Assembly (NCBI GenBank): GCA_020060385.1
Contig: JAGVAH010000157.1
Coordinates: 4,586 to 68,585, forward strand
DNA length: 64,000 nt
Source of the DNA: Syntrophobacterales bacterium
Lineage (GTDB): Bacteria > Desulfobacterota > Desulfobaccia > Desulfobaccales > 0-14-0-80-60-11
Direction of reading: 5' to 3'
Within the stretch, counting starts at the first letter, position 1. The number at the start of each line of letters is the position of its first letter. This document shows, piece by piece, positions 9,438-28,936 of the stretch. The notes under the pieces were generated by a model. It did not search any database and had not been told where the DNA came from. It saw only the letters and a list, made by a program, of their open reading frames with translations. The position numbers were made by a program, and so were the translations under genes.

Positions 9438-9446
9438 GCTGCCCTC

Positions 9447-10786: not shown

Positions 10787-10790
10787 ATAT

Positions 10791-10912: not shown

Positions 10913-10934
10913 AAAATTCTAAGGAGTAAGCCAG

Positions 10935-12280: not shown

Positions 12281-12304
12281 AAAAAAAAAGGGCCCTGGTG
12301 GGCC
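12281..12304 (-). terminator. Rho-independent terminator (minus strand) after the small lipoprotein gene
   Basis: GGCCC-TGGT-GGGCC stem-loop (12291-12304) followed on the minus strand by a run of nine T (12281-12289). Confidence 0.5.
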
Positions 12305-12413
12305 ATTGCATAAATTCCTGGTCGCCGTTTTTAGTTTATGCAACAAAATAATCTGAGTTATGTTTAATCCACAGTTTTGGGTTTAAAGCTTTTTTTAGGG
12401 GAAATAGTCCTGG

Positions 12414-12641
12414 TCAATCATCCTCCCAGTCTTCCCTAACAATACTTTGGCTTGTGCCTCCAAAGAGATCGTGCTCAATTATCCAGCCACATTTACTGGT
12501 TCTTTGCGAAGTGCTTAGGAAACCTAATTGGTATTTTTTCGGATAACCGGACGTGCAAGCGAGCGTAAGACTGATCGCCAAAATCAATAACAGGGCCAGA
12601 ACAACTAGCCGTCCCCATAACGGTTTCATCCTAGGTCGCAT
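12414..12641 (-). CDS. Small hypothetical lipoprotein
   Basis: Internal ATG 12641 with AAGGAGG 7 nt upstream: MRPRMKPLWGRLVVLALLLILAISLTLAC (signal peptide with lipobox-like LTLAC). Lower GC than its surroundings. No recognisable family. Confidence 0.5.
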   Translation of the reverse strand: MRPRMKPLWGRLVVLALLLILAISLTLACTSGYPKKYQLGFLSTSQRTSKCGWIIEHDLFGGTSQSIVREDWEDD

Positions 12642-12904
12642 TTCTCGGCCTCCTTGGACTGACACAAAGTGAAAAGGGAATCCTGAAGGCAAATCTGTAT
12701 CCAGGCGAGCAGGTAAGTAATTCGAAGTACAATGGTTTTAGCACTTCGGACATCCCGCTACCTTGGCCGACAGGCATTAGGCCGGTGACTTTGCGCTCTC
12801 ACCTTTCGGTAAACTTTGCCCTTTTCGATAGTGTAAAAAGCTTATCGGTACCTTTGCTGAAAACTGAAGAAGTTGTTGCTAGTTGTCCAGCCTGCCCCGC
12901 CTCG

Positions 12905-13275
12905 TGAGGAAAGATAAAATTAACCTGGACTTTTAACCGCCTTTTGCATTAGAACTCCAGAAAAGAGTTGAATGTCCGGTCTACGGCCTGCGGTGCTTGG
13001 GATCGGCTATCAGAGGACACATGATCGGTTTCCTGGAAGGCGAACTCCTGGACGAGAGCCCGGGCCAGGTCCTGGTCAAGGCGGGGGGCGCGGGCTACCG
13101 GCTGCTCATTCCCCGGTCCACCTGCTAGGCCCTGCCCGAGTCTCCGGGCCGCGCTCAGCCTGCAGATTCACCCCCGCATCCAGGACGACGCCCTGCACCT
13201 TGACGGCTTCCACACCCCGGAGGAAAATGACCTCTGCCTCCGGCACCTGAAAATCCCCCGCGTCGGCCCTGGCTG
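12905..13275 (+). repeat. Direct repeat copy 1 (ruvA upstream region plus 5' coding part), left boundary of the ~22-kb insertion
   Basis: Aligns by eye over about 370 bp with 35558-35932, roughly four fifths identical with small indels. Example: tgaggaaagataaaattaacctggacttttaaccgccttttgcattagaactccagaaaagagtt vs tgaggcaggagaaaataaacctggacttggagccggcttttgcattagaaatccagaaaagagtt. Confidence 0.85.
13021..13275 (+). pseudogene. Truncated, inactivated 5' fragment of ruvA
   Basis: ATGATCGGTTTCCTGGAAGGCGAACTCCTGGAC parallels the intact ruvA start at 35676. Codon 36 is TAG (13126-13128) where ruvA has TAC (Tyr36). Indels follow and similarity ends near 13275. Confidence 0.8.
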
Positions 13276-13413
13276 GGTCCCTTAAGGGGCGGCTCCATAC
13301 ACGTGCTCCATACCTTGGGAATCCTGCTCAACCCCAGCCGTTTGTTGAGCTGGCAGCTAAATCCCTGGCGCTCTTCCTGGCCGGCCCCTGGCAGCTAAAT
13401 TTGGCACCGGACC

Positions 13414-13442
13414 TTGCATTTTTGTGAAGACATAATTATAAT
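13414..13442 (+). promoter_or_regulatory. Sigma-70-type promoter candidate for the giant-ORF operon
   Basis: TTGCAT (13414-13419), 17-nt spacer, TATAAT (13437-13442) in an AT-rich patch about 360 nt upstream of the ORF A ATG. Preceded by two direct TGGCAGCTAAAT 12-mers (13351-13362, 13389-13400). Confidence 0.45.
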
Positions 13443-13802
13443 TAACCATATTTCGGTGGACCGTTCCCAACCAACTGACAACTTTTCCTGCAACTGTCCA
13501 ACAAGGAGCTCAAGTGCAAGAGGCCAAAATCCGGTCTGGCAGGCGCTGCAAAAGGTTGGCTCAAAAGGTTGTCTCCTCCGCAAACTTCCGCTTCACTGAT
13601 GCAGCCGGTTTAGTCATCGTCTGACCTGAGCGATAACGGGCCCGGTTACTGCCTGGCCCCCCTTCTCCTTCTCTCCAGCCAGACCATCCAAGCCCAAGCT
13701 TAACCCGCAGCCTGCCCTGAAGGATCGGGGAAAGGGCGGGGAATAAAGCCCAGCGGCGTTTACCTCCTTCCTTGGCATCTTTGACCAGGAGGTTTGACAG
13801 CC

Positions 13803-16800
13803 ATGGCCGAGGGTGGTTCTCCCGGTACCATTTTGGAAGCCTCGATCTCTGGGGTGCCTGCGGATCTGCGCCAGTGGCGCCTTATCAAAGGGGACCCGGA
13901 GGTTTTCGGAGTCTGGCTGGGGGATAGCTTCTATCCCCTGGCCCGGAGGGAGAATCTTGGCCTGGGCTTCCAGGAAGGCCTTCTGGGAGCCGGTTATGCC
14001 GCGGCCTGGAGGGATCGATCGGACTGCCTGGAACACCTGCCGCACCCTTTAGCCGACTTTTTCCGCCGGCAACCGGAGCGCTCCCAATTTTATCTGGTCT
14101 CCCGGAACTTGCCCGGAAATGCTGGACAGCCGGTGCCGTTGTTCACCCTGGCCAAAACGGACAGGGGCCAGGCAGTGGTTCTGGAACTCAATCCGGACTT
14201 CGCAGACCGCCGGGAGATCTATCTGGCCCTGGCTGTTTATAGCCTGGTCCAGGCCAACACCCCTTACCTCCACCACCGCTTCGATGCCCATGGGGATTTC
14301 CAGCGCCTGGGGGCCTTTTCCCAGGTAGAGCGCCACAGCACTGAGATGTCCAGGAAACACCTGGGCCAACGCATCTATTTCGAGGCAGAGGGCTGCACCC
14401 ACTGCCTCAAGTGCGCCGCCTCCTGCAGCGAAATGCAGGTGAGGCTGACCTCCGGGGGCTTAACGGTCCTGGGTCCGGCAGAAGATTATTGTACCGTCTG
14501 CCGCCTCTGCCTGGCGCATTGCCCGTATCTAAAGGATGTGCGTAAAGAAGACCTGACCCCGGACCGCCAGGCTGCACCTGCCGCCCACTTCACCGGGGGC
14601 GCCGCCGTCTATCTGACCCGGGAGGCGGCCCGGGAAGCCCAGGCCTGGTTTCAGGGGTTGGCCGCATCCCCAGGGCGTGGAGGCGATTGGCGGATTTCCC
14701 TGCTTTATCAAGGAGCCTCCTGGCAGGAAGGGGAGCCACCGGGACCGGAAATCCGGCAGTATTCCCTTCAGGAGCAAAGGCCCGGGAGTCCTTACAAACC
14801 TTTGCTGATTACGGCACATATCTCACCCCAGGGGGGGACCGCACCACCCTTGCTGATTCTCCGCTTGCTGAGCCGGGTGGCGGTCTTTCTCACCAGCGCT
14901 GCGGGGGAGATCGAGGCCGAACTGCTGCGAGGCGTAGACTCAATGGGGGTCCTCTACCAGGGGGTGGTGGATGGAGAAAAATTTGGCAGCCCCGGGGACA
15001 TGCCCCTGGCGTCCAAACTCCATCGCCTCCACCGGCTGGCCCCGGACGCGGATTTGGCGGCTTTGGTCACCGCCGGGCAAGTGGATGTGGTGTTGACCCC
15101 GACCCTGGAGGCCTTGCCGGCGCCGGTTTCCTCCTATTTCCTGGAAGCCACCGGCAACCTGGCCCACCTCCTGGCTCCCCAGATCTTTCAGGCCTTCACC
15201 TTCAGCCCGGAGCCTCTCCTCCATGAGATCCGGGAACTCTGTCTGGAGGTTTTTCCCCGCTATCCGCAACTCCTGGCCGCAGAAGCAGAACGGGCCCGGA
15301 CCTACCTGGCCGATTTGCCCCGCTATGGCCCGGAGATCCACGCCCGCTATCGTACCTGGGGCATGGCCCCGGGCCACAGCGCCTGCCCCACCTGCGCGGA
15401 ATTGCAAACCCTGGCGGTGCCCCTCTATATGGCCATGCTCCTCTCCCTGTCCCGGGGGCAGGTTCCCCAGGTGACCTTCACCTGCGAAACCGGGTGCATG
15501 AGCGAGACCCTCAATAAGGTTAAAGAAGTGGCCCAAAAAGTGAAAGGGGGCCGCACCGTGTTTGGGGGTGGCTTCGCGTTCGGGGAAGCCGCGGCCATGT
15601 CCGAGGAGTGGGCCATGGCCCGGGGCGTCTTGCCCCAGGGTCGGCGCTACGTGGTGAGCCAGAGCGGGGATGGCGGCGCGGTCATCGGGCTGCCAGCTTG
15701 GCTCAACGCCCTGCGGCAGCGGTCCTTCCTCATCAAGGATCGGGAGGCCCAGGTACTGCATTTTATCAATGTCACCGATACCCAGGTCTATTCCAACACC
15801 GGGGGAGAGAGTTCGGCCACCTCCATGCTGGGCATGAGCACCCTCACCACCCCCCTGGGGCGCTTCCTGGTGGGCAATCAGCGCATCCAGTGGCAACTCA
15901 TCAACCTGGCCGCGGAATTTCCCGGGGTTCTGGTGGGGAGCGGGCATTCGGCCCATAAGGATCTGATGCAGGAATTCTGGGCGGAAGCCGACCGCCTGGG
16001 GCGTTCCGCTATCCGTTGGGATGTCACCCCCTGTCCGGAAACCGGTAAATTCTTCGGGGAAGATCCGGATCGTTTGGCCCGGATTATGGCCTATGCCGGG
16101 TTCCTCCCGGAGGTGGTATTTGTGGGCCGCTTGCGCAAACGGGTGGCTCCCATCAATCCCCGGGATCGCCACAAGAACTGGCGGGAATGGACCTCGGAGC
16201 CCCAGCCCATTTATTACTGGCTTGCCCAAGATCCCCGTTACCGTCCCTTGATCCGCCGGGACCTGGTGAGCGGCCACTGGGAGCCCATCAATCCCGCAGT
16301 CAGGGCCATCATCGCCCAGTTGGAGAGTTTCCGGGATGGCCTCAATCGTCAGATCGACCTGGAAAACCGCCTGGTCCGGGAGGCGGAGGAATATACCGCC
16401 GAATTTTTCCGGCATCTCCAGGCCGAATGGCAGAGACATCGCTACGTCCCGGAAGAGTTTCCCTATCATTTCCTGTTCAATGACCAGGGGGAACTGAAAC
16501 CTGAGTTCGGCCCGGCCTTGCCCCGGGATTTCCTGGAGGCGGTTTTGGGTCTGGATTACGTGAGGCAGTATGTGGTGGCCCGGGACGAACAGATGACCGG
16601 GGAGGTCCAGACCCTGCAAACTCCGGGTCCGGCTGCACAAGCAATCCCGCCGGACGGCGGCGAAGGGTTACCGCCCCCTGACCCCGTGGTAGCCATGGGG
16701 ACCACGGCTACCAGCTACGAGTCCGTGGCCGCGGCCCGGCAGGCGGAATTCCAGCGCCTGCTGGATCGCCTCCTGGACGACCGGGCCCTGGCCAAGCAGG

Positions 16801-19800
16801 CCCAGATTTCCCAGTATATTTTAGGGAAAGAGTTGGCCAGGGATTTCCAGGCTCAGGGAGGCATCTTTACCCGGGCTCCGGGGAGAGGAGCGGACCTGGC
16901 CCCGGCCCGCCGGGAGTTTCGCGATAGCCTCGCCGCGTTGGGGGAATTTGCCTTGGGCGTGGCCTCCCTGGCCGGGGAACGGGGCATCGCCCTCAACCGT
17001 CTGTTCTCCCAGTATTTCACCGGCAAAGGGGCCTGGGCCGGCATGGCCTGGCAGTTCGGGTCTTCCAAACGGGGCACCCCGGTTTTTTCCGCGACTTTTA
17101 TCTCCCACCGTCCCATCCAGCGCCAGGACGCGCTGTTGCGTTTTCCCTTTTACGTGCTCACCGTCACCAACTACGGGGATTTGAAATCCCAGCCGGATTT
17201 GTTTTACGACCACCTCCACCCCCAGGGTTATCTCATTATCAATACCCCCCGGACCCCGGCCGCCATTCACCAGGAATTGCTGGCCGGCTATGACGACCAC
17301 ACCCGCCAGGGGGTGGCCCGGGCCCAGGATGCGCCCCGGGGCGAGGCCCGGGAAGCGGTGAGCCAATGGTTGTTTGAAGTTCCCTATAACGCCCTGAACC
17401 GGGAGCAGCTGGATCAGGTTACCAAAGTCCTGGCCCTGGCCCAGGCCCGGGTGATCACCACCGACCTGGACGGGATTATGGCCCAGGTGACCGGCAGCAG
17501 CCGGGCGGTTTCCAATCTGGTGGCGGTGGCCCCCATGATGCGGGCCCTGGAGCTTTTGGGCATGCCGGTGAGCTTTGAGGCCGACTTGCCGGCCCTGACC
17601 GCGGGCTTTCCCGGGGCGGTGAAAAAAAATAAGCAGCTGACCGAGCAATATTTGACGGCCATGGGGCGGGCCTATCAGGAGTCCCAGGGATTTAGCGACG
17701 CCCCGCCGCAGCTCCCCCCCCATCCCGGGGGACCGTCCCCGGACCCGGGGGACTATTATCTGGAGATGGGGGGCACCCTGGCGGGCCAGGTCCTGAGCCA
17801 GCTGGCCACCAGGGACCACCCCTTATTTTATATCGGTTTTCCCATCACCCCCGCGGGCAACCCCTTTTATGCCATGGCCCAGGCCTATGCCAACGGCCAC
17901 CCCTATATCATGGTGGACGAAAACAATCCCTCGGAGAAGGTGGCCGCGGAAAAGCTGCTGGGGGTGGCCCGCACCGGCGGCGCCCTGCCGGTGACCTTCA
18001 CCGCCTCCCAGGGTTGGCGGCTCTTTGCGGAAATCATGCCCCAACTGGTGGGGGCTCGCCTCGAATGCCTCTTCATCCTGGCCAAACGGGCCCTGGCCGC
18101 GCCAGCCCTGAACATCGAGGAGAGCCATACGGATTTCATGACCTTCCGGGATGACGGGGCCATTATGCTCTCCCCCAAAGACATCCAGGAATTCGTCCCC
18201 TGCCTCTATCTGGCCCGGTTGCTGACGCATTTTGCCCGGCTGCCGGTGGTGGCCTCCCTGGGGGGCATCACCGATACCCACAAAATCAGCCTGGTCAAGG
18301 TTCCTCCGGACCAAGAGGTCCAGGCCTGGCTGGCCCGGGCCCTGGCGGAGGTGGATTTCCTGGAAGATAAGCTGCTGAATCGCCAGGGGGAGGTGATTGT
18401 CCACGGTCCCAGCGCCACCGGGGAAGTCTATCAGGAAACTCAATCGGCAGTGGAGAAGGCCCATGCCCTGGTGCCTCGGGTCTTCCCGTATGCGGCCCGC
18501 CTGGTGGAGGAATTGACGGGCTACCGCTTCCAGGAACTGGAAGTCGCGGCCACGGCCCCGGGGGAACCCCTGACCACCGGGCTGGTCCTCACCGGCTCTT
18601 TCTATCCCAACGCACAGGAGGCCATTGCCGAACTGGCCCAGGAGGGCTGGGGGGAGCTGGGGGCCATTTCCGTCAGGCTGTTCAATCCCTTTCCGGAAGA
18701 GGCCCTGGCTGAGATATTGTCCGGGGCCAAGCTGGTGACCATCATAGACCGCTCCAACAGTTTCGGCAGCGTGCCGCCTCTGGCCAGCCGGGTGATCACG
18801 GCCCTGGCCCGCGCCCGTAAAGGGCTGCCGCCCCTCTTTCGCGTCCTGGTGGGCGGCCTGGGGGGACGGGAGATCACCGTGCCCGAACTCAAAGAAATCA
18901 TCAAGTTCAGCCATCTGTGCCTGGCGCCCCGGCCCCAGGTAAAGCCGGGGCTCAGGCAGCGCCTCCTGGAGGGGGACCTGTTGCTCCAGGGATTACTGGC
19001 AGAACGGGCGGCCCTGGAAGCCAGGAGTCTGCAGCGGCATACGCGGCTCCCAGCCGCGGCCCGGTCCGAGGCCCAGGCCCCGGGAGCGCTTGCGGCCACC
19101 CGGGAAAGACTGGCCCAGGCCCTCATCCGGGGAGATTACCTCTCCGCCCTGGCCAATTACGGCTCCGTGGAGTTCGTCAATCCCCAGGAAGTTTGGGAGG
19201 AGACCCGGCTCCTCAAGAAGTTGATCATCCGCCTGGAGATGCTGCTGGCCCGGGAACTCATCAGCCAGGGACAGGCCGACTGGCGGGCAGCGGCAACACT
19301 CCTGGAATACGGGGTGCAGCCCGGAGATTTTGCCTTGGCGGTGCGCGGCCTTAATTCCCTGATCACCGCCGCGCCGGCCCCTGCGGCCTGGACTCTTTAT
19401 CGACTGGGTGAAGCCTACGGTCATAAATTCAGGCCCAGGGGCCTGACCTTAAGGGCACCGGTGGGGCCGCCTCCGGCGCCTCTGCCCCCGTCTGCGGCTC
19501 CAGAAATTGAGGAGCCGGCGCCACCGTTGGGCGCGGCCAGGCCCGAAGTTCCCTTTTCCCCCGCGGAGGCGGCTATTTTAGAGAAGGTCATGCGCGCCCT
19601 GATTGGGGAAAGCGCCCAACGGGAAACCCTGCGCAATCCCCTTGACCTGGAGCGGGAGACCCTGGATATCCTGGCCCGTGACCCGGCCTCCCAGCTTTTT
19701 GGCCGGGCCGATGGGGCCATCCGCCGGGCCTATCAGGAGGTGTATACCGGGGTCATCGACCGGACCCTGGCCGAGGGCATCCTGGGGCAACACTATGCCC

Positions 19801-20087
19801 CGGAGCTCAGGGAAATCTTTGCCGGCGAGGGGCTGCGGGCCCTGGAGCTGATGGCCCAGGCCACGGTGGCCTATTTTGCTCGGGGCCATGGGGAAGGGCC
19901 CCCTGACCGGGTAGAAGTGCAGCGACAGGCGGCTGGGGCAGTGGAACGTTACCTCCGGGAAGAGGTTTACCCCCGGTACCGCCGGACGCCGGGGTTTTAC
20001 CATGACTATTACCGGGCCTGGGTGGCGCCGGACCTGAAAGAGGCCATTGTCAGGGAAGTGGCGGCGATTAACTGGAAAACCCCATAA
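13803..20087 (+). CDS. Giant (about 2,095 aa) domain-permuted 2-oxoacid:ferredoxin oxidoreductase-like fusion protein
   Basis: ORF track 13794 (TTG); ATG 13803 is more likely (AGGAGG upstream). Numbering from 13794. Ferredoxin motifs: C201-x2-C-x2-C-x3-C and C233-x2-C-x2-C-x3-CP. PFOR TPP-binding module: ACPTC..TCETGC, SGDGGAVIG..NVTDTQVYSNTGGESSATS, TPCPE. Gamma/POR-like module: FGSSKRGTPVFSATFISHRPIQ. PFOR domain I: IGFPITPAGN, NPSEKVAAE, TFTASQGW, ESHTDFM. PFOR domain II: SVRLFNPFPEE, IIDRSNSFGS. Long unassigned N-terminal, internal and C-terminal stretches. Confidence 0.8.
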   Translation: MAEGGSPGTILEASISGVPADLRQWRLIKGDPEVFGVWLGDSFYPLARRENLGLGFQEGLLGAGYAAAWRDRSDCLEHLPHPLADFFRRQPERSQFYLVSRNLPGNAGQPVPLFTLAKTDRGQAVVLELNPDFADRREIYLALAVYSLVQANTPYLHHRFDAHGDFQRLGAFSQVERHSTEMSRKHLGQRIYFEAEGCTHCLKCAASCSEMQVRLTSGGLTVLGPAEDYCTVCRLCLAHCPYLKDVRKEDLTPDRQAAPAAHFTGGAAVYLTREAAREAQAWFQGLAASPGRGGDWRISLLYQGASWQEGEPPGPEIRQYSLQEQRPGSPYKPLLITAHISPQGGTAPPLLILRLLSRVAVFLTSAAGEIEAELLRGVDSMGVLYQGVVDGEKFGSPGDMPLASKLHRLHRLAPDADLAALVTAGQVDVVLTPTLEALPAPVSSYFLEATGNLAHLLAPQIFQAFTFSPEPLLHEIRELCLEVFPRYPQLLAAEAERARTYLADLPRYGPEIHARYRTWGMAPGHSACPTCAELQTLAVPLYMAMLLSLSRGQVPQVTFTCETGCMSETLNKVKEVAQKVKGGRTVFGGGFAFGEAAAMSEEWAMARGVLPQGRRYVVSQSGDGGAVIGLPAWLNALRQRSFLIKDREAQVLHFINVTDTQVYSNTGGESSATSMLGMSTLTTPLGRFLVGNQRIQWQLINLAAEFPGVLVGSGHSAHKDLMQEFWAEADRLGRSAIRWDVTPCPETGKFFGEDPDRLARIMAYAGFLPEVVFVGRLRKRVAPINPRDRHKNWREWTSEPQPIYYWLAQDPRYRPLIRRDLVSGHWEPINPAVRAIIAQLESFRDGLNRQIDLENRLVREAEEYTAEFFRHLQAEWQRHRYVPEEFPYHFLFNDQGELKPEFGPALPRDFLEAVLGLDYVRQYVVARDEQMTGEVQTLQTPGPAAQAIPPDGGEGLPPPDPVVAMGTTATSYESVAAARQAEFQRLLDRLLDDRALAKQAQISQYILGKELARDFQAQGGIFTRAPGRGADLAPARREFRDSLAALGEFALGVASLAGERGIALNRLFSQYFTGKGAWAGMAWQFGSSKRGTPVFSATFISHRPIQRQDALLRFPFYVLTVTNYGDLKSQPDLFYDHLHPQGYLIINTPRTPAAIHQELLAGYDDHTRQGVARAQDAPRGEAREAVSQWLFEVPYNALNREQLDQVTKVLALAQARVITTDLDGIMAQVTGSSRAVSNLVAVAPMMRALELLGMPVSFEADLPALTAGFPGAVKKNKQLTEQYLTAMGRAYQESQGFSDAPPQLPPHPGGPSPDPGDYYLEMGGTLAGQVLSQLATRDHPLFYIGFPITPAGNPFYAMAQAYANGHPYIMVDENNPSEKVAAEKLLGVARTGGALPVTFTASQGWRLFAEIMPQLVGARLECLFILAKRALAAPALNIEESHTDFMTFRDDGAIMLSPKDIQEFVPCLYLARLLTHFARLPVVASLGGITDTHKISLVKVPPDQEVQAWLARALAEVDFLEDKLLNRQGEVIVHGPSATGEVYQETQSAVEKAHALVPRVFPYAARLVEELTGYRFQELEVAATAPGEPLTTGLVLTGSFYPNAQEAIAELAQEGWGELGAISVRLFNPFPEEALAEILSGAKLVTIIDRSNSFGSVPPLASRVITALARARKGLPPLFRVLVGGLGGREITVPELKEIIKFSHLCLAPRPQVKPGLRQRLLEGDLLLQGLLAERAALEARSLQRHTRLPAAARSEAQAPGALAATRERLAQALIRGDYLSALANYGSVEFVNPQEVWEETRLLKKLIIRLEMLLARELISQGQADWRAAATLLEYGVQPGDFALAVRGLNSLITAAPAPAAWTLYRLGEAYGHKFRPRGLTLRAPVGPPPAPLPPSAAPEIEEPAPPLGAARPEVPFSPAEAAILEKVMRALIGESAQRETLRNPLDLERETLDILARDPASQLFGRADGAIRRAYQEVYTGVIDRTLAEGILGQHYAPELREIFAGEGLRALELMAQATVAYFARGHGEGPPDRVEVQRQAAGAVERYLREEVYPRYRRTPGFYHDYYRAWVAPDLKEAIVREVAAINWKTP

Positions 20088-20090: not shown

Positions 20091-23000
20091 TTGGAGGAAG
20101 TTTTGGCATCGCATCCCCGGAGCGGGGTTTCTGAAACTGTCGGGGCAGGCCCCTGGGGGGACCTGCGTCCCCGGGTTTATAAAGCGATTCGGGCCGCGGC
20201 CGCGGAGCCGGCAGCCCCGGCGGACCGCCGCGCATTGCTGGAACACTGGCTGAGCCCCTTATTCCAGGAGGATACCCGCGAACTTAGCTTCCCGGAGGAA
20301 TTGGCCCAAGATCAGCAAGCCTTGTTTCAGGGCGGCCTGCAGCGAGCCGTCAACCGTTGCCGCGGCTACGCCGGGGCCTGGTTTGCCTGGGAGTCCCTGG
20401 ACCCGGAAGCCCTGGCCCGGGAAGTGAAGCAGGCGGTCAGGAGGGTGGCCCGGGAAGATGAGATGGCCCAGTCTCTGATTGAGGGGCAGGATCTCCAGGC
20501 AGAGGAAATCCCCCGGCTCCGGAAATATAGGTTGCGGCAGCGCTGGTGCGGCGGTGGGGAGGCTGCCGACGCCTTCCGGGTGGAAGAGTGGCTCCAGGAT
20601 GTGGCCTTTTTTAACCGGGAATTAATGGAGATCGGCAGTTGGGCCCGTTTATTCCATACCGTCGCCTTGCTCCATGGGGAGGGGATAAAGGCACCGGAAC
20701 TGAGGCGGCAGGCCCTGCTCTCGGTTCAGGAAAAAGTCATTAAGGGACAACCCCTGGAGTCCCTTGGGGAAGTGGTCATTTATTTGGAGGGCCGGGTAAG
20801 GGCCGGGGAATATGCGACCTCCGGGGAGAGCCTGGCCCCGCCCCTGGAGCCTGGGCTGTTTCCCGGCGAGCCTCAGGATGTCTGCCTGCTGCTGCGGCTG
20901 GGGCTGGTTTTCCTGGTCACCGGGGGCAGGCGGCCCGAACATCGGCAGCGCCTGGACTGGTTGGCAAAGCACCAGGACCTTAACGACCTGCGCGATTTAT
21001 TTCTCTTATTCCTGGCAGCCCTCCAGGGGCAAGACCCCCTGCCGCCCCCCTCGGCGGTGCTGGACCAGCTCCAGCGTCAGGGCTACCCCATTCACCACCA
21101 GGATTCCAGTTACGCCTACCGGGCCTTCATGGTGCCTCTGGAAGATTTGCCCGGCGTCTTGGAGGTAAGCCTCAGTTGGCCCCTGGACCCCGGGGCCCTC
21201 ACCGGAGATCCGGAACGAGACTTAAGCCTGGGTCGGGACCAGGGAGAAAGGCAGGGCCTCTGGCTCCAGGCCTTTAAAGAAGAGGCCCTGGCCTATTGTC
21301 GGGGCCGGGTGAAGCCGCTGCCTTACGCCGAGCTTATCCGCCCCGCGGCCCGGTTTGCCGCGGCTTGGCTGGCGGCTAGACAGTGTCGGGAGGGGAAAGC
21401 GCTGGATCTGCCAGCCCAGGTCCAAGAAGGGGTGAACCTCCTGCCGCCAGCCCTCTTGAAGCTCATTAGGCCTCGCAAGGGCTACGAACTGTCCCACCGC
21501 AGTCAACTGGAAAGATTGCTGCAGCAGGAATTCCAGGCCTACCACCAGGTCCTCTACCGGTGTCGCGGTGGCGGCTGCCTGGCCAATAAGGCTGATGAGG
21601 GCCGCTTCTTCCATCTGGCCGCGGCCCTGGCGCTGGCGTGCCGCCAGAGTGACTTAATGGCCTTGGGTCCGGAAGAGGTGACGGGATTGGAAGTGGCGGA
21701 AGTCTTGGACCATCTCCAGGAATTGGCCGCCACCCTTTCCCTGGACCTGGAACCTGCGGCCGCGCCCTACTGGCATGAATTCAAGGATTGGCTTAAGGAG
21801 AAGCTGGATTGGCCTTCCCTGGCGGGAGAGGCAGAAGACCCCGGTGGACTCCCGGTCAACTGGAAGTCTGAGGCGGATACCCTTTTCCAGGAACTGGCTG
21901 GGCAGCTTTACCGTTTGGTGGTGGCCAAGGCCCGGGCCGAGGGGGGGCTGCCTCTTCTTAAGGGGGACCGCCATCTGCTTGCCTGGCTGGCAGACTGGCT
22001 GACTCCGGAAAGGCGCGCCCTCCTTAAAGCCTCCGGCGCCCAGCTACTCAACACCATTAAGGCCCAAGCCCGGCAAGCGGTGTGGGAATCCTACCCCTTG
22101 CTGCTGGAGAGCAGGGAAGAACTGCTGGCCCTGAGCAAGTATTATCTGGGGGTGGAACTCAAGGGCCGGGATTTGGAGACCTATGCCCGGACCCAGCCGC
22201 TGGGGGACTTGGCCCCAAAAGTGGCGGCGGCTCTCCAGAGATGCCACATTCCTCCGGAAATTGCCGGTCCCGGCGGGGTGGAAGCGGTTATCCAAGAAGT
22301 GCTGCGGCCCCGAACCCTGGAGGCCACTGCGGCCCAACGGCAACTGGAGGAAAAGGTCCTGGCCCTTCTGCCCCGGACCGATTGCGGCTCCTGCGGCAGC
22401 CCGGGTTGCCTGGCTTTTGCACGACTGCTGGTCCAGGGCCGGGCCCAACCGAGCCAATGCCCCACCTCCCCCGCGGCCACCAAGGCGCGGCTGACCGGGA
22501 TTCTCGGGGCGACGCCCGCGGCGGCTCCGGAGCCTTATGTCCTCAGGCCCGGGGAAATCCCCCTGCTCACCTGCCTGTTAGACCCATATTTCGTGGCCCT
22601 GCGACAGCGGCTGGCCCAGGAATTGGACGCGGGTGAGCGGGAGAGGATTATCCCCTTTAAAAAGCGGGGGATTTCCATTCTGCAAATCGGCAAAAGTCCC
22701 GATGCCGCTGCCTTTCACAGGTATTTAGAGGATTATTTGGGCTCCGACGCGGCCAATCGCCTGAGCCGCAGCGACCGGGCCTTTCTGGCGGATTACGGCG
22801 ACTTGAGACTGGCTGCCGCCACCCGGGAGCTGGAAGATGAATTTTCCTGGGCCGCGTATGAGACCCGGATCAATCTCTCGAAATTCGCCCTGGCGGAAAG
22901 AGACCTGGCCCGGGGGGCCGCGGCCCATTATGACCGCTGCTTCTTTCTTTCAGACTTGTCTATTACGGACCGGACCCGGGTGCAGGAATTCCGCCGTCAA

Positions 23001-24941
23001 CGCTTCCTGTGCGATTTTTTGGAGGATTGGGAGCAAAGCTTGACGGAACTCTGGCAGGCTGGGTCCCGCATCGAAGATTGGCAGGACTTCTCCCATATTG
23101 TGGCTAAATCTTACTGGCATCAGGAATTCACCCCGGCCCCGAAAGAAATCATGCAGGCCTTGGGGCGGGCGATCCGGGAGCCCCTGCCCGCCTGGGGCCT
23201 ATCCTGGGGGGAAAGGCTGGTGCAGGAGCAGTGGCACGCCCTGGAAAGCGAAAAGTCACATCTGGCTGAACTACTCAGACGGCGACGGGTGGAAACTCCC
23301 GCAGACCTGGACCTTCTTGTCCGCGGCTTGGTGAACCGGGCCTGGCAGGATCTGACCGCCGGAACGCCGGCCCCGGGTCTGCCCCGTCCCGACCCGGTGC
23401 TGCAGATCAGCCGGAACGCCTTTAAGCAACTGGACCAGGCCAATCTCCACATGGCCGGGGACCTCAGGATGCATTGGGATGAACTCTCCGGGCGGGTCCG
23501 GGAGATTCTGGGCGCAGATACCCAGGTGGCGCCGGAGGAATTGGCCCGCCTGCAAGCCAGCGCCGCCGGCCTGGCCTGGCGAGAGATGTCCTCTTTGGGG
23601 AGGGCCTGGATCGAGGCCCAAATAACGGCCGCGGCGGAACGTCTCCTCTTGGAAGAAGTTGAGGTGGACCGTTTTCTTAAGGGGGATCTGCCTTTCCCCA
23701 GTCCCCGGACTCTGCGCCGGGCAGTCTGCCGGCTGTATGCGGCCGGCAAAAAAGGCCTTCACCACCTCCTGGAGGCCCTACACACGGCTATGCAGGCCTA
23801 TCCCCAAGGGTGGCAGGCGCTGGGAGAGGCGGCCCTGTTCCAGCTTATCTGGGCGCGTCTGGCCACCGGGCGATTCAGATTCACGGAGCCCGGGGCCGAT
23901 AACCTGGTGCGCAAGGTGGACCGCCTGCTCCGGGCCCAGGTGAGCAAGGACGTGCATAAGCTGAAGGCCTACATGTTTCTGTTGGCGAAGATGGAGGGCA
24001 ACCTGGATAAGCTCACGGCCCTGCTCCGGGAAATCCGGGAGACCTCGGATATTATCGAAGCCGCCTGGCTGGACTTTACCAAAGAACGCCTGGCTCTGCG
24101 CCGTTCCCCTCATCCTGAGGCGGCAGAGGGCCAAAAAGCGCCCTTGCTGCTGGCCCGCCTTGACCCGGCGCGGCTGAACCGTTACCTGGAAGAGGGTCTG
24201 CCCCGGGGGGAACCCCGGGAATGTAGCCGGGCCTATGAGGAACTGACCACCATCTTGGAATTCTATGTGGTCTCCGCGGCCCCCCAAGATTCTCCCCAGG
24301 AGATCTTCCAGCACCTGCAAGGGGGCTGCTACGATTTTACCGGGATTTCCCCCCAATCCTTATTGAAGACTTTACAGGTCCTCCACCAGCAGCGGGATCG
24401 CCTCCTGCCCCGCAAAATCAGCATTTGCACCTACGTCCTGGGCCATCGCCTGGCTGGCGCGGAACCACATCTGGCCCAGAGCGAAGCCGACTTTCTCAAT
24501 GAGAAGAAGGCCTTTCTGAAATCCGAGGCTTTGCCAGCGGAACTCCGCAAGGGACAACTGGCGGGCAACTGGGGGGTAGAGCTGGGAAAAATCAGAAATG
24601 CCCTCTACCTGCAAGTCTCTGATCTGCTGGAACAGGAACGCACGGAAAGTTTTGCCAACCGCATCGGCCAGATCATTGAGCGCCTGGAAGAAGAATACGC
24701 GGCCACCGTGGAGGCGTTCCAAAAGGGTGAGTTTAACCGCCGCACCGCTTTTTATATTTTCCGGCGCTTCCAGAAGGATCAGAATGAACTGTCGGGCGCG
24801 GATTTGGGACGTTTTCTCAAGCGGCACCAACCGGAAACCCTGGCGCAACTCCGGAGCCGGTTGGCGCCCCTGGTGGTGGCCGAGGTGGAGGGGCAGCTGG
24901 AAAAGATCTTATCCAAGTATCAGGGGGCGTTGTTGGGCTAG
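20091..24941 (+). CDS. Giant (1,616 aa) helical protein with a single RnfB/CFeSP-type [4Fe-4S] motif; function unknown
   Basis: Starts 3 nt after the ORF A stop (TTG 20091, or TTG 20103 with GGAGG 5 nt upstream). The only recognisable motif is LLPRTDCGSCGSPGCLAFARLLVQGRAQPSQCP, i.e. C765-x2-C-x4-C-x16-C790 (nt 22383-22460). The remainder is Leu/Ala/Glu/Arg-rich with uniform coding-like composition. Confidence 0.75.
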   Translation: MEEVLASHPRSGVSETVGAGPWGDLRPRVYKAIRAAAAEPAAPADRRALLEHWLSPLFQEDTRELSFPEELAQDQQALFQGGLQRAVNRCRGYAGAWFAWESLDPEALAREVKQAVRRVAREDEMAQSLIEGQDLQAEEIPRLRKYRLRQRWCGGGEAADAFRVEEWLQDVAFFNRELMEIGSWARLFHTVALLHGEGIKAPELRRQALLSVQEKVIKGQPLESLGEVVIYLEGRVRAGEYATSGESLAPPLEPGLFPGEPQDVCLLLRLGLVFLVTGGRRPEHRQRLDWLAKHQDLNDLRDLFLLFLAALQGQDPLPPPSAVLDQLQRQGYPIHHQDSSYAYRAFMVPLEDLPGVLEVSLSWPLDPGALTGDPERDLSLGRDQGERQGLWLQAFKEEALAYCRGRVKPLPYAELIRPAARFAAAWLAARQCREGKALDLPAQVQEGVNLLPPALLKLIRPRKGYELSHRSQLERLLQQEFQAYHQVLYRCRGGGCLANKADEGRFFHLAAALALACRQSDLMALGPEEVTGLEVAEVLDHLQELAATLSLDLEPAAAPYWHEFKDWLKEKLDWPSLAGEAEDPGGLPVNWKSEADTLFQELAGQLYRLVVAKARAEGGLPLLKGDRHLLAWLADWLTPERRALLKASGAQLLNTIKAQARQAVWESYPLLLESREELLALSKYYLGVELKGRDLETYARTQPLGDLAPKVAAALQRCHIPPEIAGPGGVEAVIQEVLRPRTLEATAAQRQLEEKVLALLPRTDCGSCGSPGCLAFARLLVQGRAQPSQCPTSPAATKARLTGILGATPAAAPEPYVLRPGEIPLLTCLLDPYFVALRQRLAQELDAGERERIIPFKKRGISILQIGKSPDAAAFHRYLEDYLGSDAANRLSRSDRAFLADYGDLRLAAATRELEDEFSWAAYETRINLSKFALAERDLARGAAAHYDRCFFLSDLSITDRTRVQEFRRQRFLCDFLEDWEQSLTELWQAGSRIEDWQDFSHIVAKSYWHQEFTPAPKEIMQALGRAIREPLPAWGLSWGERLVQEQWHALESEKSHLAELLRRRRVETPADLDLLVRGLVNRAWQDLTAGTPAPGLPRPDPVLQISRNAFKQLDQANLHMAGDLRMHWDELSGRVREILGADTQVAPEELARLQASAAGLAWREMSSLGRAWIEAQITAAAERLLLEEVEVDRFLKGDLPFPSPRTLRRAVCRLYAAGKKGLHHLLEALHTAMQAYPQGWQALGEAALFQLIWARLATGRFRFTEPGADNLVRKVDRLLRAQVSKDVHKLKAYMFLLAKMEGNLDKLTALLREIRETSDIIEAAWLDFTKERLALRRSPHPEAAEGQKAPLLLARLDPARLNRYLEEGLPRGEPRECSRAYEELTTILEFYVVSAAPQDSPQEIFQHLQGGCYDFTGISPQSLLKTLQVLHQQRDRLLPRKISICTYVLGHRLAGAEPHLAQSEADFLNEKKAFLKSEALPAELRKGQLAGNWGVELGKIRNALYLQVSDLLEQERTESFANRIGQIIERLEEEYAATVEAFQKGEFNRRTAFYIFRRFQKDQNELSGADLGRFLKRHQPETLAQLRSRLAPLVVAEVEGQLEKILSKYQGALLG

Positions 24942-25000: not shown

Positions 25001-28000
25001 ATGGGTGCACAAATCCTGGAGATGCGGCTGAGTCCCGGCTGTCAGGAGGAAGCAGCCGGGGAATATGATCTGCGCCCGGACCTCACCCCGGAAGCGGCCG
25101 CAAAAGAATTGCCTCCGGCGGCGCGCCGGGTTTTAGCGCCGGTGGCGGCCGCGTTCGCGGCCCTGCATCGGGGTTTGGTGGAAGATTTGCCACTGACCGG
25201 CATCCGCAAGGTTCGCCTTTTCCAGAACCTGGGCGCCGCGGCGCGTTTGGCCCGGAGCCAGGAACCTGGGGCCGCCACCGCCGAAGTAGCGCTGGCCGCC
25301 CTGGGGGCCGGGCCGCAGTGGGTTTCATTGCTGGCTGACCTGCTGCGGGCCGCGGCCCTATATCCGGGGGTGCGGGATACCCGGCTGCCCCGGCGTTTCG
25401 CGCCCCTGGCCCGGATGGTGGCCCCCTTGCGCCACCTCCTGGAAAAGATCCGGGAAAGGGTTCAGCGCCAGCCTCGATTTGCCTCCCAGATTATGGGGCC
25501 CCTGGAAGCTGATGACTCCCAGCGGCTGGTTGACCCCTGGGGGCAGACCCGCCTGCTGCTCCAGCGTTTCCTATGCCGGCAGGACTGGCGGGAACGGGAT
25601 GTGCTGCACCTGATGCTGGATTTCCTCCAGGGGAGCCCTAACCTTTACGGGGAGCGCCTCCTGAACCTCTGGTTTTCCTTGAAGCGCCTGCAAGATGAGG
25701 AGCCCGCGGCCTATACCCGGATGGTGGCCGCGCTCATCAACGAAGGACGGGCCTATCTGGGAGAGCTCCCCCGCTGGCGCCACCTCTGCGGGATGGGGGA
25801 AACCGGGGGAACAGGGGCCTGGGAAGGGGCTGACACCTTCCGGGTCATCCAGGGCATGGCCGGGCTCCTGGGAGTACCCCCGGAGGATCTTCCGGCTCTT
25901 TCCGCCGCAACTGGCGCGGCGGGGATTGACTGGGACACCCTCAAGGCCGCAGCCTTACAAACAGGAGGCGGGTTCTCCCCCTTAAAACCCTTGGAGAGGG
26001 CTTCTCTCTTCCTGGCCGCGGAGCTGTTCCCCGAAAATTTGGGCCATCGGGCCTTTCTGCGCTTCCTCTTGGAAAACGAAGAGCCTTACCGGCAGTTGCT
26101 GGCCACCTGCTACAGCTCATTGGAAACGCAAGAGGCCCAGCTTGCCAGGATTTTAACCGCGTTTAACGGGCACCCGGCCAATATCGAAAAACGGGTGCAT
26201 TACCGCCAGAGTGAGGCGGCCCAGTTGCTGCGGGTCTTCTTTTTGCGGCCCGATCCGGTGGAGGCCATCATTGACCGGGAGCGGAAAAAAGACATCTATT
26301 ACCGCCTCCCCGGGTTGCCAGGCCAGGCCCTGCTCCCCCAGGTGCTCCACGAATGCCAAAGCATCTTCCAGTACCTCACGCAGGAGGCCCTGAAACGGGT
26401 GGCCGCGGGTTTAGGGGTCGATCCTGCCGAGATTGGCCGGGTCATCGCCTCCTACAAGGAGTTTACGGTGGATCCCACCGGCCAGCACCTCCTTTATGTC
26501 TGCAAGGGCACCGCCTGCTTTCTGAGGGGCCAGCCCCACCTTTCCCAGGCCCTGGCCACCCGCCTGGGAGTGGAGGAAGGCCGGGTTTCCCCGGAGGGGG
26601 TGCAATTCTTTGAGCGGGATTGTTTTGGCACCTGTCATCTGGCCCCGGTGATCAAGGTGGGCCACACCTTTGTTGCCGCCTTGAGGCCGGAGGTAATCCC
26701 GCCCTTGATCGGCAAGCTCCTCAAGGGCCGCTCCTTCGCCAATCGCTCCGATTTCTTCAAGGCCGTTCGGGATAGCCTGGCGGAAGAAGATCAGGTGGTC
26801 CTGAGCCACTCTTGCCCCGTCCAGGGGGCCTGCGGGCTGGAGGTCACCCCGGAGCAATTAGAGGGCCTGGCCATTAACGGCCTGGGGGAGATCCGGGCCT
26901 GGCCGGAAAAGAAAGTCCTGGGAACCCTGGCGGAACGGAGCTACTCCTTCAGTTTTATGGATCCGTCTGGCAGCCGGCAATACGGCACCCTCATTACCGA
27001 TGCCGACGACTTTCTCCTGGGGGTGGTCAATGTCCCGGACCCCCGGGTGCAAAAGGGATTGGCGCGCACCCTGCGGCCCCGGGTAGTGCTTAAGGACCAT
27101 TACGTCCATTTGGAGGGACGCCCTCAGCCCCTGGGGGCCTATCACTCCAACAGCATCGCCTTGGGGAAGCCGGACGGCACCTACGGCAGCCTGGTCTTTG
27201 GGGAAGAGAACCTCCAGTCTCCCCCGGAAGAGACCTGTGGCTTGACCCCGGGTTTCCAGCGTCCGGTCCCCCCGGAATTTTTCCGGCGGCAAGACCGGCT
27301 CCTCCTGGGGTTTGTGGAGGGAGTGAACCCGGAATCCATCGATTCTTATCTGGAAAAGGGCGGCTACCAGGCCTTGAAAAAGGTTCTGGGTTACGGTCAG
27401 CCGGAGAAGAGCTGGCCGCCGGCAACCATCGTCCAGGAGATCATGGCCGCCAATCTCCGGGGCCGGGGGGGCGCGGGCTTCCCCACCGGCGTCAAGTGGG
27501 AGGCCATGCTTCAGGCTCGTCCCGAATCGCGGGCAGGAGACGAGGTGGACCTGCCTCTGAAGTTAATGGTGGCTAACGGTGACGAAGGCGACCCCGGCGC
27601 CTTTATGGACCGCACCTTGATCCAGGAACGGCCCCATCAGGTTCTGGAAGGGATGCTCATCGCCGCCCTGGCCACCGGCTGCCGCTATGGCGTCATCTAT
27701 GTCCGCAAGGAATACGAAGATGCGGTGCAGCGCCTGGAAAACGCCGTCTTTGAGGCCCGGCGCTACGGTTTCCTGGGGCGGCAGGTAATGGAAGTGGCGG
27801 ATTTCGACTTCGATGTGGAAATCCGCTTGGGTGCCGGGGCTTTTGTGGCCGGGGAAAAACGGGCCATTATGCGGGCCATCGCCGGCAAGCCCGCGGAGCC
27901 CGATCTTCAGGCGGTCTCCAATGTCAAGGGGGGACTGTGGGGCAAGCCCACCCTGCTGAACAACGTGGAAACCTTTGCCAATGTGCCTTTGATTATCAGC

Positions 28001-28936
28001 CGGGGCGGCGCCTGGTTCCGGGACCGGGGATACGGGGCCAGCGGCGGCAGCAAGATCTTTTCCGTGGCCGGGATTGTCAACCACACCGGCCTGGTGGAGG
28101 TGCGGTTCGGCCGCACCTTCAGGGACGTGCTGCAGATCGCCGGGGGCGTCCAGGAGGGGAAAAGGCTCGCTGGCGTCCAGATCGGCGGTCCCTCGGGGGC
28201 CATCCTCTCTTTGACCGGAGTCCGGGCCTACCTCCTGGATGCCCCCCTGGATTTCGATGTCTTCAACCGGGTGGGGGCCATGCTAGGTTCCGGCGGCCTG
28301 GTTTTCCTGGGGGAGGACGATGACGTGGTGCGGTTGGCCCGTCATTTTACCTCTTGGCTGGCCGCGGAATCCTGCGGCCAATGCCCCAGTTGCCTGAACG
28401 GCCTCGTCTCCCTGGGGGCCACCCTGGACCGCATCCTCAAAGGGGAGGGCGCCAGCCTGGATATCCACACCCTGTGGGGCAAAGCCGATATCATCCGGGC
28501 CGGCTCCCGGTGCGGATTGGGGCAGACAGCCCCCAACCCCGTGACCAGTTCCCTCAGATTCTTCCCGGTTTCCTATCTCCATTACCTTTTGGATAACCCC
28601 CGGATCGATGCCCCGGAGCTTTTCCTCAGCCTGGAGGCCTTACATCTCCTTACCCGGGGGGAGACCGCGCTCTCCACCGCCGCGCCTGGGCGCGTCTCCT
28701 TCTACCTGAAAAAGGGTTTGATCCGGTTCATCTTTGAGGAATTGACCAAACTGGACCGCTTTCGGCCGGGGACGGACAACCGCCCGGGCCGTTTCTTGAA
28801 ATTGCTCAACCTTACCCCGAACCAGGTGGGTTGGCGGGGCGTGCAGATGGAATATTCCCGGGAAACCATGGCCCAACATCCTTACCTCATGGTGGGGGCC
28901 TCAGGGGCAGGGGCAAAGGCGGAGTCCCGGGCTTAA
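25001..28936 (+). CDS. Giant (1,311 aa) NuoE-NuoF fusion flavoprotein (NAD(P)H/FMN/[2Fe-2S]/[4Fe-4S] module) with a ~480-aa unknown N-terminal region
   Basis: AAGGAG 8 nt upstream of the ATG. NuoE-type motif: C501-x4-C506..C541-x3-C545 (VCKGTACFLRG..CFGTCHLAP). NuoF-type motifs: NPESIDSYLEKGGYQALKKVL, LRGRGGAGFPTGVKW, NGDEGDPGAFMDR, GAGAFVAGEKRA, SLBB-like VEVRFGRTFRDVLQIAGG, and N3 cluster ESC1125GQCPSC-x39-C1171GLGQTAPNP. Confidence 0.85.
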   Translation: MGAQILEMRLSPGCQEEAAGEYDLRPDLTPEAAAKELPPAARRVLAPVAAAFAALHRGLVEDLPLTGIRKVRLFQNLGAAARLARSQEPGAATAEVALAALGAGPQWVSLLADLLRAAALYPGVRDTRLPRRFAPLARMVAPLRHLLEKIRERVQRQPRFASQIMGPLEADDSQRLVDPWGQTRLLLQRFLCRQDWRERDVLHLMLDFLQGSPNLYGERLLNLWFSLKRLQDEEPAAYTRMVAALINEGRAYLGELPRWRHLCGMGETGGTGAWEGADTFRVIQGMAGLLGVPPEDLPALSAATGAAGIDWDTLKAAALQTGGGFSPLKPLERASLFLAAELFPENLGHRAFLRFLLENEEPYRQLLATCYSSLETQEAQLARILTAFNGHPANIEKRVHYRQSEAAQLLRVFFLRPDPVEAIIDRERKKDIYYRLPGLPGQALLPQVLHECQSIFQYLTQEALKRVAAGLGVDPAEIGRVIASYKEFTVDPTGQHLLYVCKGTACFLRGQPHLSQALATRLGVEEGRVSPEGVQFFERDCFGTCHLAPVIKVGHTFVAALRPEVIPPLIGKLLKGRSFANRSDFFKAVRDSLAEEDQVVLSHSCPVQGACGLEVTPEQLEGLAINGLGEIRAWPEKKVLGTLAERSYSFSFMDPSGSRQYGTLITDADDFLLGVVNVPDPRVQKGLARTLRPRVVLKDHYVHLEGRPQPLGAYHSNSIALGKPDGTYGSLVFGEENLQSPPEETCGLTPGFQRPVPPEFFRRQDRLLLGFVEGVNPESIDSYLEKGGYQALKKVLGYGQPEKSWPPATIVQEIMAANLRGRGGAGFPTGVKWEAMLQARPESRAGDEVDLPLKLMVANGDEGDPGAFMDRTLIQERPHQVLEGMLIAALATGCRYGVIYVRKEYEDAVQRLENAVFEARRYGFLGRQVMEVADFDFDVEIRLGAGAFVAGEKRAIMRAIAGKPAEPDLQAVSNVKGGLWGKPTLLNNVETFANVPLIISRGGAWFRDRGYGASGGSKIFSVAGIVNHTGLVEVRFGRTFRDVLQIAGGVQEGKRLAGVQIGGPSGAILSLTGVRAYLLDAPLDFDVFNRVGAMLGSGGLVFLGEDDDVVRLARHFTSWLAAESCGQCPSCLNGLVSLGATLDRILKGEGASLDIHTLWGKADIIRAGSRCGLGQTAPNPVTSSLRFFPVSYLHYLLDNPRIDAPELFLSLEALHLLTRGETALSTAAPGRVSFYLKKGLIRFIFEELTKLDRFRPGTDNRPGRFLKLLNLTPNQVGWRGVQMEYSRETMAQHPYLMVGASGAGAKAESRA

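Follow-up and report, generated by a model that had tools for sequence, protein, structure and literature searches.

The 64,000-nt stretch analysed here (the window: positions 4,586 to 68,585, forward strand, of contig JAGVAH010000157.1 in assembly GCA_020060385.1, from a Syntrophobacterales bacterium) carries an open reading frame, ORF A (13803..20087, + strand), which encodes a rearranged 2-oxoacid:ferredoxin oxidoreductase (OFOR) in a single chain of 2,094 amino acids (aa). With the domains numbered as in pyruvate:ferredoxin oxidoreductase (PFOR), the chain reads N, V, X1, VI, X2, III, I, II and C-terminal extension, and it is followed by two further large reading frames, ORF B and ORF C, with which it forms a module, A-B-C. 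In anaerobes, carbon flow and electron flow meet at the OFORs, of which few architectures are known. We propose, with a probability of roughly 0.55, that A-B-C may be a soluble 2-oxoacid:NAD(P)+ oxidoreductase of about 550 kDa per protomer in which ORF A is the catalytic chain. The module is considered soluble because none of A, B and C contains a transmembrane-like segment.

ORF A is a real, selected single gene and not a chance frame, since 26 homologues and 28 genomic loci were found, and three of the loci belong to cultured isolates. The frame opens at 13794 (TTG) or 13803 (ATG) and ends at 20087. Because AGGAGG lies 8 nt upstream of the ATG at 13803, and because a homologue 81% identical to ORF A (locus L001) has the identical N-terminus MAEGG, the product is assigned 2,094 aa. 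The homologues were obtained from 5.8 billion protein clusters; they are 45-100% identical to ORF A and 2,066-2,169 aa long, except for the truncated P0024 (1,322 aa), and the next matches were ordinary PFORs at E ~1e-19 with 15% of the query covered. The loci, scanned at one genome per species, belong to Desulfobacca, to Syntrophobacteraceae (Desulfacinum, Desulfosoma, Desulforhabdus, Desulfoferrobacter) and to metagenome-assembled genomes labelled Deltaproteobacteria or Desulfobacterales; the cultured strains are Desulfacinum infernum DSM 9756, D. hydrothermale DSM 13146 and Desulfoferrobacter suflitae DRH4. Beyond Desulfobacca- and Syntrophobacteraceae-type bacteria, the searches that were run found the family in assembly GCA_041643115.1 only. 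When the beta module of ORF A (domain VI) was used in a full HMMER pass against 1.84 billion representatives, 14 proteins were obtained at E <= 1e-3, and the nearest outsiders were PorB/VorB/PFOR-like proteins at E ~1e-7. As judged from these searches, the ORF A family is small and isolated. Its members are named 'hypothetical protein' or 'POR alpha subunit' in the databases, and literature searches did not find this family described. The ratio of nonsynonymous to synonymous substitution rates (dN/dS), computed against L001, was 0.23 for the whole of ORF A; by segment it was 0.07 for beta, 0.10 for domain I, 0.14 for gamma (domain III) and 0.23-0.40 for the orphan segments. Lineages with an overall identity of only about 45% still share 80-90% of their residues in the beta module (aa 520-760) and in domain I (aa 1320-1480).

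The chain contains one full catalytic set. A delta-like ferredoxin domain, domain V, for two [4Fe-4S] clusters (14370..14537; this and all following features of the module are on the + strand) was recognised by Fer4 families and PorD_Arch, with a Fer4 dicluster match at aa 190-242 (nt ~14370-14530) and the ligands C198, C201, C204, C208, C230, C233, C236 and C240. Domain VI (15360..16292), the TPP (thiamine pyrophosphate) pyrophosphate-binding module with the proximal [4Fe-4S], was identified by a PorB-like match at aa 520-745 (NCBIfam, E 3e-9) and by Foldseek; its key residues are C528, C531, C565, C744, GDG at 622-624 and TDTQVYSNTGGESS at 658-671. In a phmmer search of PDB sequences, aa 521-762 were aligned to the Methanosarcina PFOR subunit PorB (9bt4_C, residues 10-228), pairing (ORF A first) GHSACPTC with GHRGCAGC, ETGCMS with PTGCLE, SGDGG with GGDGS, TDTQVYSNTGG with VDNEAYMNTGI and TPCP with APCP. 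The loop LDTEVYSNTGGQSS of Moorella PFOR has a nearly exact counterpart in ORF A. The proximal-cluster residues C528, C531, C565 and C744 match Cys of 9bt4_C and are invariant, also in P0061, a distant fusion protein of 7,473 aa described below. C561 of the motif TCETGC is not kept in P0058 and P0061, where it is replaced, and C565 is therefore taken as the ligand in this motif.

Gamma, or domain III (16896..17717), gave a weak match to the POR gamma family (aa 1063-1279, Pfam POR E 5e-4), and its fold was confirmed by the AlphaFold model and Foldseek. Domain I of alpha (17763..18482), which binds the TPP pyrimidine, matched POR_N at aa 1341-1557 (E 6e-30), and domain II (18525..18932) matched PFOR_II at aa 1594-1695 (E 1e-12). 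Sequence alignment pairs the alpha part with residues 26-374 of Moorella PFOR (6cin) and with residues 59-376 of Desulfovibrio africanus PFOR (DaPFOR, 1b0p), placing FPITP on YPITP, the Glu of PSE on that of QSE, and AKRALAA on AARALST and TARAIAA. The key residues of domain I are T1349 of FPITP (1346-1350), E1378 and R1429; by the residue roles of DaPFOR, E1378 is taken as the TPP-activating Glu and T1349 and R1429 as the carboxylate-binding residues. The eight ferredoxin Cys, the four proximal-cluster Cys, GDG...SNTGG and the Glu, Thr and Arg of domain I are invariant in 21-26 aligned family members, and the same set is kept in P0061. By these motifs and folds ORF A has the features of the OFOR superfamily, namely the TPP motif of domain VI, four proximal Cys, the domain I residues and domains II and III.

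These results can be set against the initial annotation of the window, whose observation of the sequence is confirmed and whose interpretation is supported in part only. It had placed the same modules, and the Pfam and NCBIfam placements agree with it. The Cys motifs and the domain-I Glu to which it had pointed are real and align to ligands of solved enzymes, although in TCETGC the ligand is C565 and not C561. It had regarded missing TPP/Mg or cluster ligands as fatal to its reading, and in the sequence alignments all of them are present. Its view of an active enzyme and not a decayed paralogue is likely to be right, given that the TPP/Mg, cluster and carboxylate residues are invariant and dN/dS is low.

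The extra residues that it had reported are also there, about 1,100 in all. The N domain (aa 20-155, 13860..14267; dN/dS 0.23) is folded and beta-rich, X1 (aa 265-460, 14595..15182) is a folded alpha/beta domain between V and VI, and X2 (16293..16853) consists of long helices at aa 831-878, 905-939 and 975-1017 around a variable proline-rich linker at aa ~921-970. The all-helical C-terminal extension (aa 1711-2094, 18933..20084; dN/dS 0.40) is conserved over its full length and is split into two blocks by the proline-rich linker RAPVGPPPAPLPPSAAPEIEEPAPP (aa 1884-1908, nt 19452-19526), which had been noted earlier and is confirmed here. No recognisable family could be assigned to N, X1 or the extension; for N and X1, when the N-terminal halves of 14 members were searched with Pfam and a profile was run against PDB, the ferredoxin domain alone was matched.

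The fold of ORF A was modelled with AlphaFold in two parts, aa 1-1040 and aa 1021-2094, from the 25-26-sequence family alignment. High predicted local distance difference test (pLDDT) scores were obtained for N (70-90), X1 (80-90), gamma at aa 1032-1305 (70-93), domain II (80-89) and the C-terminal extension (80-94, with a dip at aa 1896-1910). In Foldseek searches against PDB, the gamma model (aa 1032-1305) matched the free gamma subunits 2raa, 9bt4_E and 3g2e with TM scores of 0.72-0.79. The best matches of the second half of ORF A were 5b46_A (745 columns, E 1.6e-10) and 6n2n_A (714 columns), and the first half matched beta subunits and PFOR only, with a probability of 1.0 to 9bt4_C and 5exd_F. 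X1 gave only weak Rossmann-like matches (probability <=0.6).

The order of the domains was earlier explained as a circular permutation of PFOR. This is not borne out: rotation of I-II-III-V-VI yields V-VI-I-II-III, but the order observed is V-VI-III-I-II. ORF A instead joins two blocks by proline-rich linkers: first V-VI, in the order that the C-terminal half of PFOR shows, and then III-I-II of the Sulfolobus/KorA type. Poorly conserved proline-rich stretches are located at aa 921-960, 1281-1320 and 1881-1920, with insertions at aa 934-953 and after 1909. Because the junctions are such linkers, fusion of separately ordered subunit genes is the likely origin of ORF A and fits better than permutation of a single chain. 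The possibility that the order reflects two partial OFOR copies was ruled out by an all-against-all hhalign comparison of 12 segments, a profile-profile comparison in which no second partial copy was found in ORF A; the claim of one chain with one complete set is thereby upheld. Among curated models, the alpha and beta modules scored 114 bits with PorA, 110 with PFOR, 80 with VorA and 25-27 with KorA-type models, all far under the cut-offs. With TIGR02176, the model of the canonical single-chain PFOR, the 110 bits stand against a cut-off of 911 and domains I-II alone are covered. These scores place both modules closest to the POR/VOR/PFOR clade. The gamma-alpha (III-I-II) fusion probably arose independently of the KorA type, because ORF A scores closer to POR/VOR than to KorA-type models.

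ORF B (20091..24941) encodes 1,616 aa and starts 3 nt past the stop codon of ORF A, a spacing which suggests translational coupling. The call of this gene by JGI (P0031, 1,568 aa) is 48 aa shorter and starts at 20235; the earlier start at 20091 is supported because conservation with L001 begins at residue 1. The sole match of ORF B in Pfam and NCBIfam is PF04060 (E 1.5e-12), a single [4Fe-4S] domain of the RnfB-N/CdhE-N type, and its sole invariant Cys are C765, C768, C773 and C790 (nt ~22368-22463). The 26 homologues of ORF B are all ~1,600 aa, and those that are named are all called 'hypothetical'.

ORF C (25001..28936, 1,311 aa) is a NuoE-NuoF fusion (nuoF_fam 340 bits, nuoE_fam 75 bits, and Pfam). 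It begins with a 440-aa N-terminus of no known family, followed by a NuoE-like part (aa 445-572), a 200-aa insert and a NuoF-like part (aa 776-1192). The NuoE-like part (PF01257, E 1e-26) has the invariant [2Fe-2S] residues C501, C506, C541 and C545; the NuoF-like part has the FMN/NAD(H) domain, with the motifs GRGGAGFPTG and DEGDPGAF, and one [4Fe-4S] with C1125, C1128, C1131 and C1171. Just these eight Cys are conserved in ORF C. No module common to the extensions of A, to B and to C was found, and about two thirds of the 5,021 residues of A, B and C have no recognisable family.

In every locus with enough DNA the order A-B-C is held, and homologues of B and C were met only in this context, which the initial annotation of ORF A had missed. 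When positions 1-13800 and 29000-46000 of the window were compared with the loci L001 and L012, no flanking gene of the window recurred beside A-B-C elsewhere, not even in relatives whose ORF A is 81-83% identical. A-B-C therefore seems to move, or to be retained, as a unit. In assembly GCA_041643115.1 the three proteins are joined in P0061, in which A (aa 865-3417), B and C (aa 5309-6809) are colinear and the Pfam domains follow the same order within one uninterrupted 22.4-kb ORF. The strict synteny and this fusion speak for joint action of A, B and C. The gene of P0061 lies at 6001-28422 of locus L029 (JBGGHG010000055.1) and encodes in addition ~860 aa ahead of A, which open with a hydrophobic segment resembling a signal or anchor, and ~660 aa beyond C. 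When the A part of P0061 served as query, no match was obtained, and no close relatives of P0061 were found.

In its sequence, ORF A has sites for TPP between domains I and VI, for the proximal [4Fe-4S] (domain VI) and for two further [4Fe-4S] (domain V). A 2-oxoacid would be decarboxylated on the TPP and its acyl group transferred to CoA. The two electrons may then pass from the proximal cluster through the two clusters of the ferredoxin domain to the single [4Fe-4S] of ORF B, and further through the NuoF-type [4Fe-4S] and FMN of ORF C to NAD(P)+. Such an enzyme would be ferredoxin-independent and would run in the oxidative direction, and electron transfer from ~-500 mV to -320 mV is exergonic (potentials from Table 1 of PMC9304861). 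Assembly or scaffolding is the probable role of the two thirds of the mass that are orphan. For the substrate, pyruvate or another small or branched 2-oxoacid is our leading guess, because the alpha and beta modules appear closest to the POR/VOR/PFOR clade and the Thr and Arg are conserved.

Several points weigh against a direct route to NAD(P)+. In the ferredoxin domain and in both TPP-binding domains, I and VI, the pLDDT is below 50, so that the models do not bear on cofactor geometry and inter-domain packing; the ligands were checked by sequence alignment to solved enzymes. The single bridging cluster in the 1,616 aa of ORF B may be insufficient for the electron path. ORF C reached 340.7 bits with the NuoF equivalog TIGR01959, for which the cut-off is 558.65, and is by this score a homologue of NuoF and not an equivalog; it also reads GEKR in the nucleotide/flavin region, where NuoF has GEET. 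Because of GEKR and the score below cut-off, its nucleotide specificity is uncertain. Furthermore, an OFOR linked to NAD+ would waste the low potential of the 2-oxoacid, which is odd for energy-limited sulfate reducers and syntrophs, and the flanks of the A-B-C loci hold no conserved clue to the substrate.

It is on energetic grounds that a bifurcating or confurcating enzyme of the Por-Bfu type, coupling 2-oxoacid/acyl-CoA + CO2 to both NAD(H) and an external ferredoxin, would make better sense, and pyruvate synthesis from acetyl-CoA under energy limitation would then be conceivable. For Dehalococcoides and 'syntrophic Proteobacteria', PMC9304861 predicts a Por-Bfu made up of BfuABC and four Por subunits, the hosts of A-B-C are sulfate reducers and syntrophs, and a ferredoxin-binding site might hide in the orphan domains. 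However, ORF C keeps only the NuoF-type [4Fe-4S] and the NuoE [2Fe-2S], ORF B matches PF04060 alone, and no BfuA/NuoG/HydA-like protein is present, so that we consider this coupling unlikely. An equally low rating is given to the idea that ORF A is an ordinary ferredoxin-dependent OFOR, merely decorated, and that B and C are co-transcribed with it but work separately, for example as an independent NADH:acceptor oxidoreductase. ORF A does have its own ferredoxin domain, and in PFOR this domain feeds external ferredoxin (PMC5020499), but the A-B-C order is strict while the flanks differ even in relatives of 81-83% identity, and B and C, whose homologues were found only in this context, are one polypeptide with A in P0061.

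Slightly more doubtful again is a different chemistry on the OFOR fold, either independent of CoA as in oxalate oxidoreductase or directed at an unusual 2-oxo compound. The isolation of the family (14 matches among 1.84 billion, outsiders at E ~1e-7, curated models below cut-offs) is consistent with it. The glycine loop of gamma is altered as well, reading AGERGIA where PorC has GxGGQG; N and X1 are confidently folded and under selection, and a second activity or substrate channelling might reside in them. Yet the TPP site is PFOR-like throughout, as are the Thr and Arg that bind the carboxylate, and the gamma fold, which in PFOR binds CoA, is kept and conserved. That ORF A is a decayed paralogue, or an artefact of assembly or gene calling which fuses separate subunit genes, is hardly credible. 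The contig is of metagenome type with a high guanine-plus-cytosine (GC) content, where long ORFs easily arise; this reading is refuted by the full-length ORF in 28 independent assemblies, including those of the three named strains, by the invariant ligands and by the whole-gene dN/dS of 0.23.

Returning to the oxidoreductase that would link a 2-oxoacid to NAD(P)+, a farther-reaching version of it can be put forward tentatively, at odds clearly below even: A-B-C may represent an undescribed class of half-megadalton redox machine, an oxygen-sensitive TPP/iron-sulfur/flavin counterpart of the 2-oxoacid dehydrogenase complexes, in which an OFOR core is wired through a giant single-cluster protein to a NuoEF flavoprotein and two thirds of the mass (N, X1, X2, the C-terminal extension, nearly all of B and half of C) are new folds. 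If so, these folds might form a scaffold or a coupling step, possibly a splitting or merging of electron pairs that is not of the Bfu kind, and the 7,473-aa chain would be among the largest single-polypeptide metabolic redox enzymes. The chemistry itself is known in kind (OFOR plus a NuoEF module); what is new is the domain order, the set of partners, the size and the orphan mass. The order V-VI-III-I-II has not been seen in any solved or curated OFOR, and more than 3,000 residues per protomer are conserved and selected without a known family. Ferredoxin is the assumed OFOR acceptor in sulfate reducers and syntrophs; a fixed NuoEF-type partner without bifurcation clusters would imply a direct route from 2-oxoacid to NAD(P)+ in these organisms. 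Metabolic reconstructions of the hosts miss or misread ORF A under its present database labels. Since three cultured strains carry A-B-C, the hypothesis is directly testable.

The surroundings of the module showed no promoter or terminator signal that rose above background. In D. infernum (L028), an ADP-forming acyl-CoA synthetase (CoA_binding, Succ_CoA_lig, ATP-grasp_5; 5594-7732, - strand) lies ~2 kb upstream of ORF A. Pairing with such a synthetase is typical of OFOR pathways; at the other A-B-C loci this neighbour is not conserved. Beside the fused gene in L029 there is a giant gene of >2,045 aa with PPDK_N and PEP-utilizers domains (29690-34422, + strand), which hints at metabolism of pyruvate or phosphoenolpyruvate and has no homologue in the window or at the other loci. 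Only in Syntrophobacterales-type loci, namely L028 (25303-25890), L006 (25623-26192) and 10 others, is ORF C directly followed by a stand-alone GAF-domain protein of ~190 aa; it is missing from the window, whose ORF at 29016-29720 is unrelated to it.

Upstream of ORF A, the genes yebC and ruvC (11681-12160) are followed by a truncated RuvA-like N-terminus, MIGFLEGELLDESPGQVLVKAGGAGYRLLIPRSTC* (~13012-13128, +), and no intact ruvA was seen between ruvC and ORF A. The 1.6 kb in front of ORF A resemble a junction left by rearrangement or insertion. In the same region, a c-di-GMP-I riboswitch (RF01051; 12745-12830, - strand; E 8e-10, 56 bits where the gathering score is 35) precedes a short reading frame on the minus strand (~12640 to ~12410) whose N-terminus, MRPRMKPLWGRLVVLALLLILAISLTLAC..., resembles that of a signal-bearing protein or lipoprotein, and a terminator-like hairpin is located at 12304-12291. 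Elsewhere in the window, a cluster for alpha-glucan by the GlgE pathway occupies 54388-62126 on the - strand (GlgB-like 54388-56409, TreS-maltokinase fusion 56355-59690, GlgE 60042-62126), a GT4 glycosyltransferase is encoded at 53036-54262 (+), and the GC content, 0.55-0.65 elsewhere, dips to 0.46 at 44001-46000, across ORFs 44659-45645 (-) and 45789-46757 (-).

Among known systems, single-chain PFOR (D. africanus 1b0p, Moorella 6cin; TIGR02176) resembles ORF A in that domains I, II, III, V and VI and three [4Fe-4S] occur in one chain. It gives the best sequence matches of the alpha part (E ~1e-26 to 1e-24), and its Thr/Glu/Arg of domain I and its DTxVYSNTGG loop are almost identical in ORF A. 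In DaPFOR, TPP is bound between I and VI, the proximal cluster lies in VI and two clusters lie in V (PMC5020499). In contrast, PFOR runs I-II-III-IV-V-VI-VII where ORF A runs V-VI-III-I-II, and ORF A has in addition ~1,100 residues (N, X1, X2 and the extension) and the partners B and C. The two-subunit enzymes, Sulfolobus StOFOR (5b46/5b48) and Magnetococcus OGOR (6n2n), have an alpha chain colinear with aa ~1030-1710 of ORF A, since StOFOR alpha is a III-I-II fusion and its beta is domain VI (PMC5020499). They lack domain V and their beta is separate, while in ORF A beta is fused upstream and domain V is present; ORF A agrees with the KorAB/StOFOR class in the order III-I-II, but assignment to it was rejected for these reasons and for the 25-27 bits obtained with KorA.

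The wiring to NAD(P)+ which we favour for A-B-C has counterparts in PadEFGHI, the phenylglyoxylate:NAD+ oxidoreductase of Azoarcus/Aromatoleum, and in the pyruvate:NADP+ oxidoreductase of Euglena, where an OFOR core is also joined to a flavoprotein that reduces pyridine nucleotides. Their flavoprotein modules differ and are not NuoEF, and neither is known to have an ORF B-like protein or the orphan domains; the PadG and PadI models gave only 60 and 15 bits. ORF C shares with NuoEF, Nqo1-2, HoxEF and FdsGB the NuoE [2Fe-2S] Cys pattern and the NuoF region for FMN, NADH and a single [4Fe-4S]. It differs in being one fused chain with a 440-aa orphan N-terminus, a 200-aa insert and scores below cut-offs, and in having an OFOR as partner where those modules have NuoG, a hydrogenase or a formate dehydrogenase. 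Por-Bfu (BfuABC + PorDEFG, predicted; PMC9304861) is alike in that a single operon of anaerobes encodes an OFOR together with proteins of the NuoE and NuoF types. In the Bfu family the BfuBC core carries FMN and six clusters, five of which (B1-B5) are in BfuB; non-bifurcating homologues are without B2-B5, and the NuoG/HydA-like feeding subunit BfuA is missing only in the rare Type 4 (PMC9304861). Membership of A-B-C in this family was rejected: the NuoE [2Fe-2S] is there, but the NuoF part conserves one [4Fe-4S] where BfuB has five clusters, and BfuA is absent. Where Por-Bfu has seven subunits of normal size, A-B-C has three giant proteins, with a one-cluster NuoF part. Por-Bfu is the nearest concept to A-B-C, yet distinct from it.

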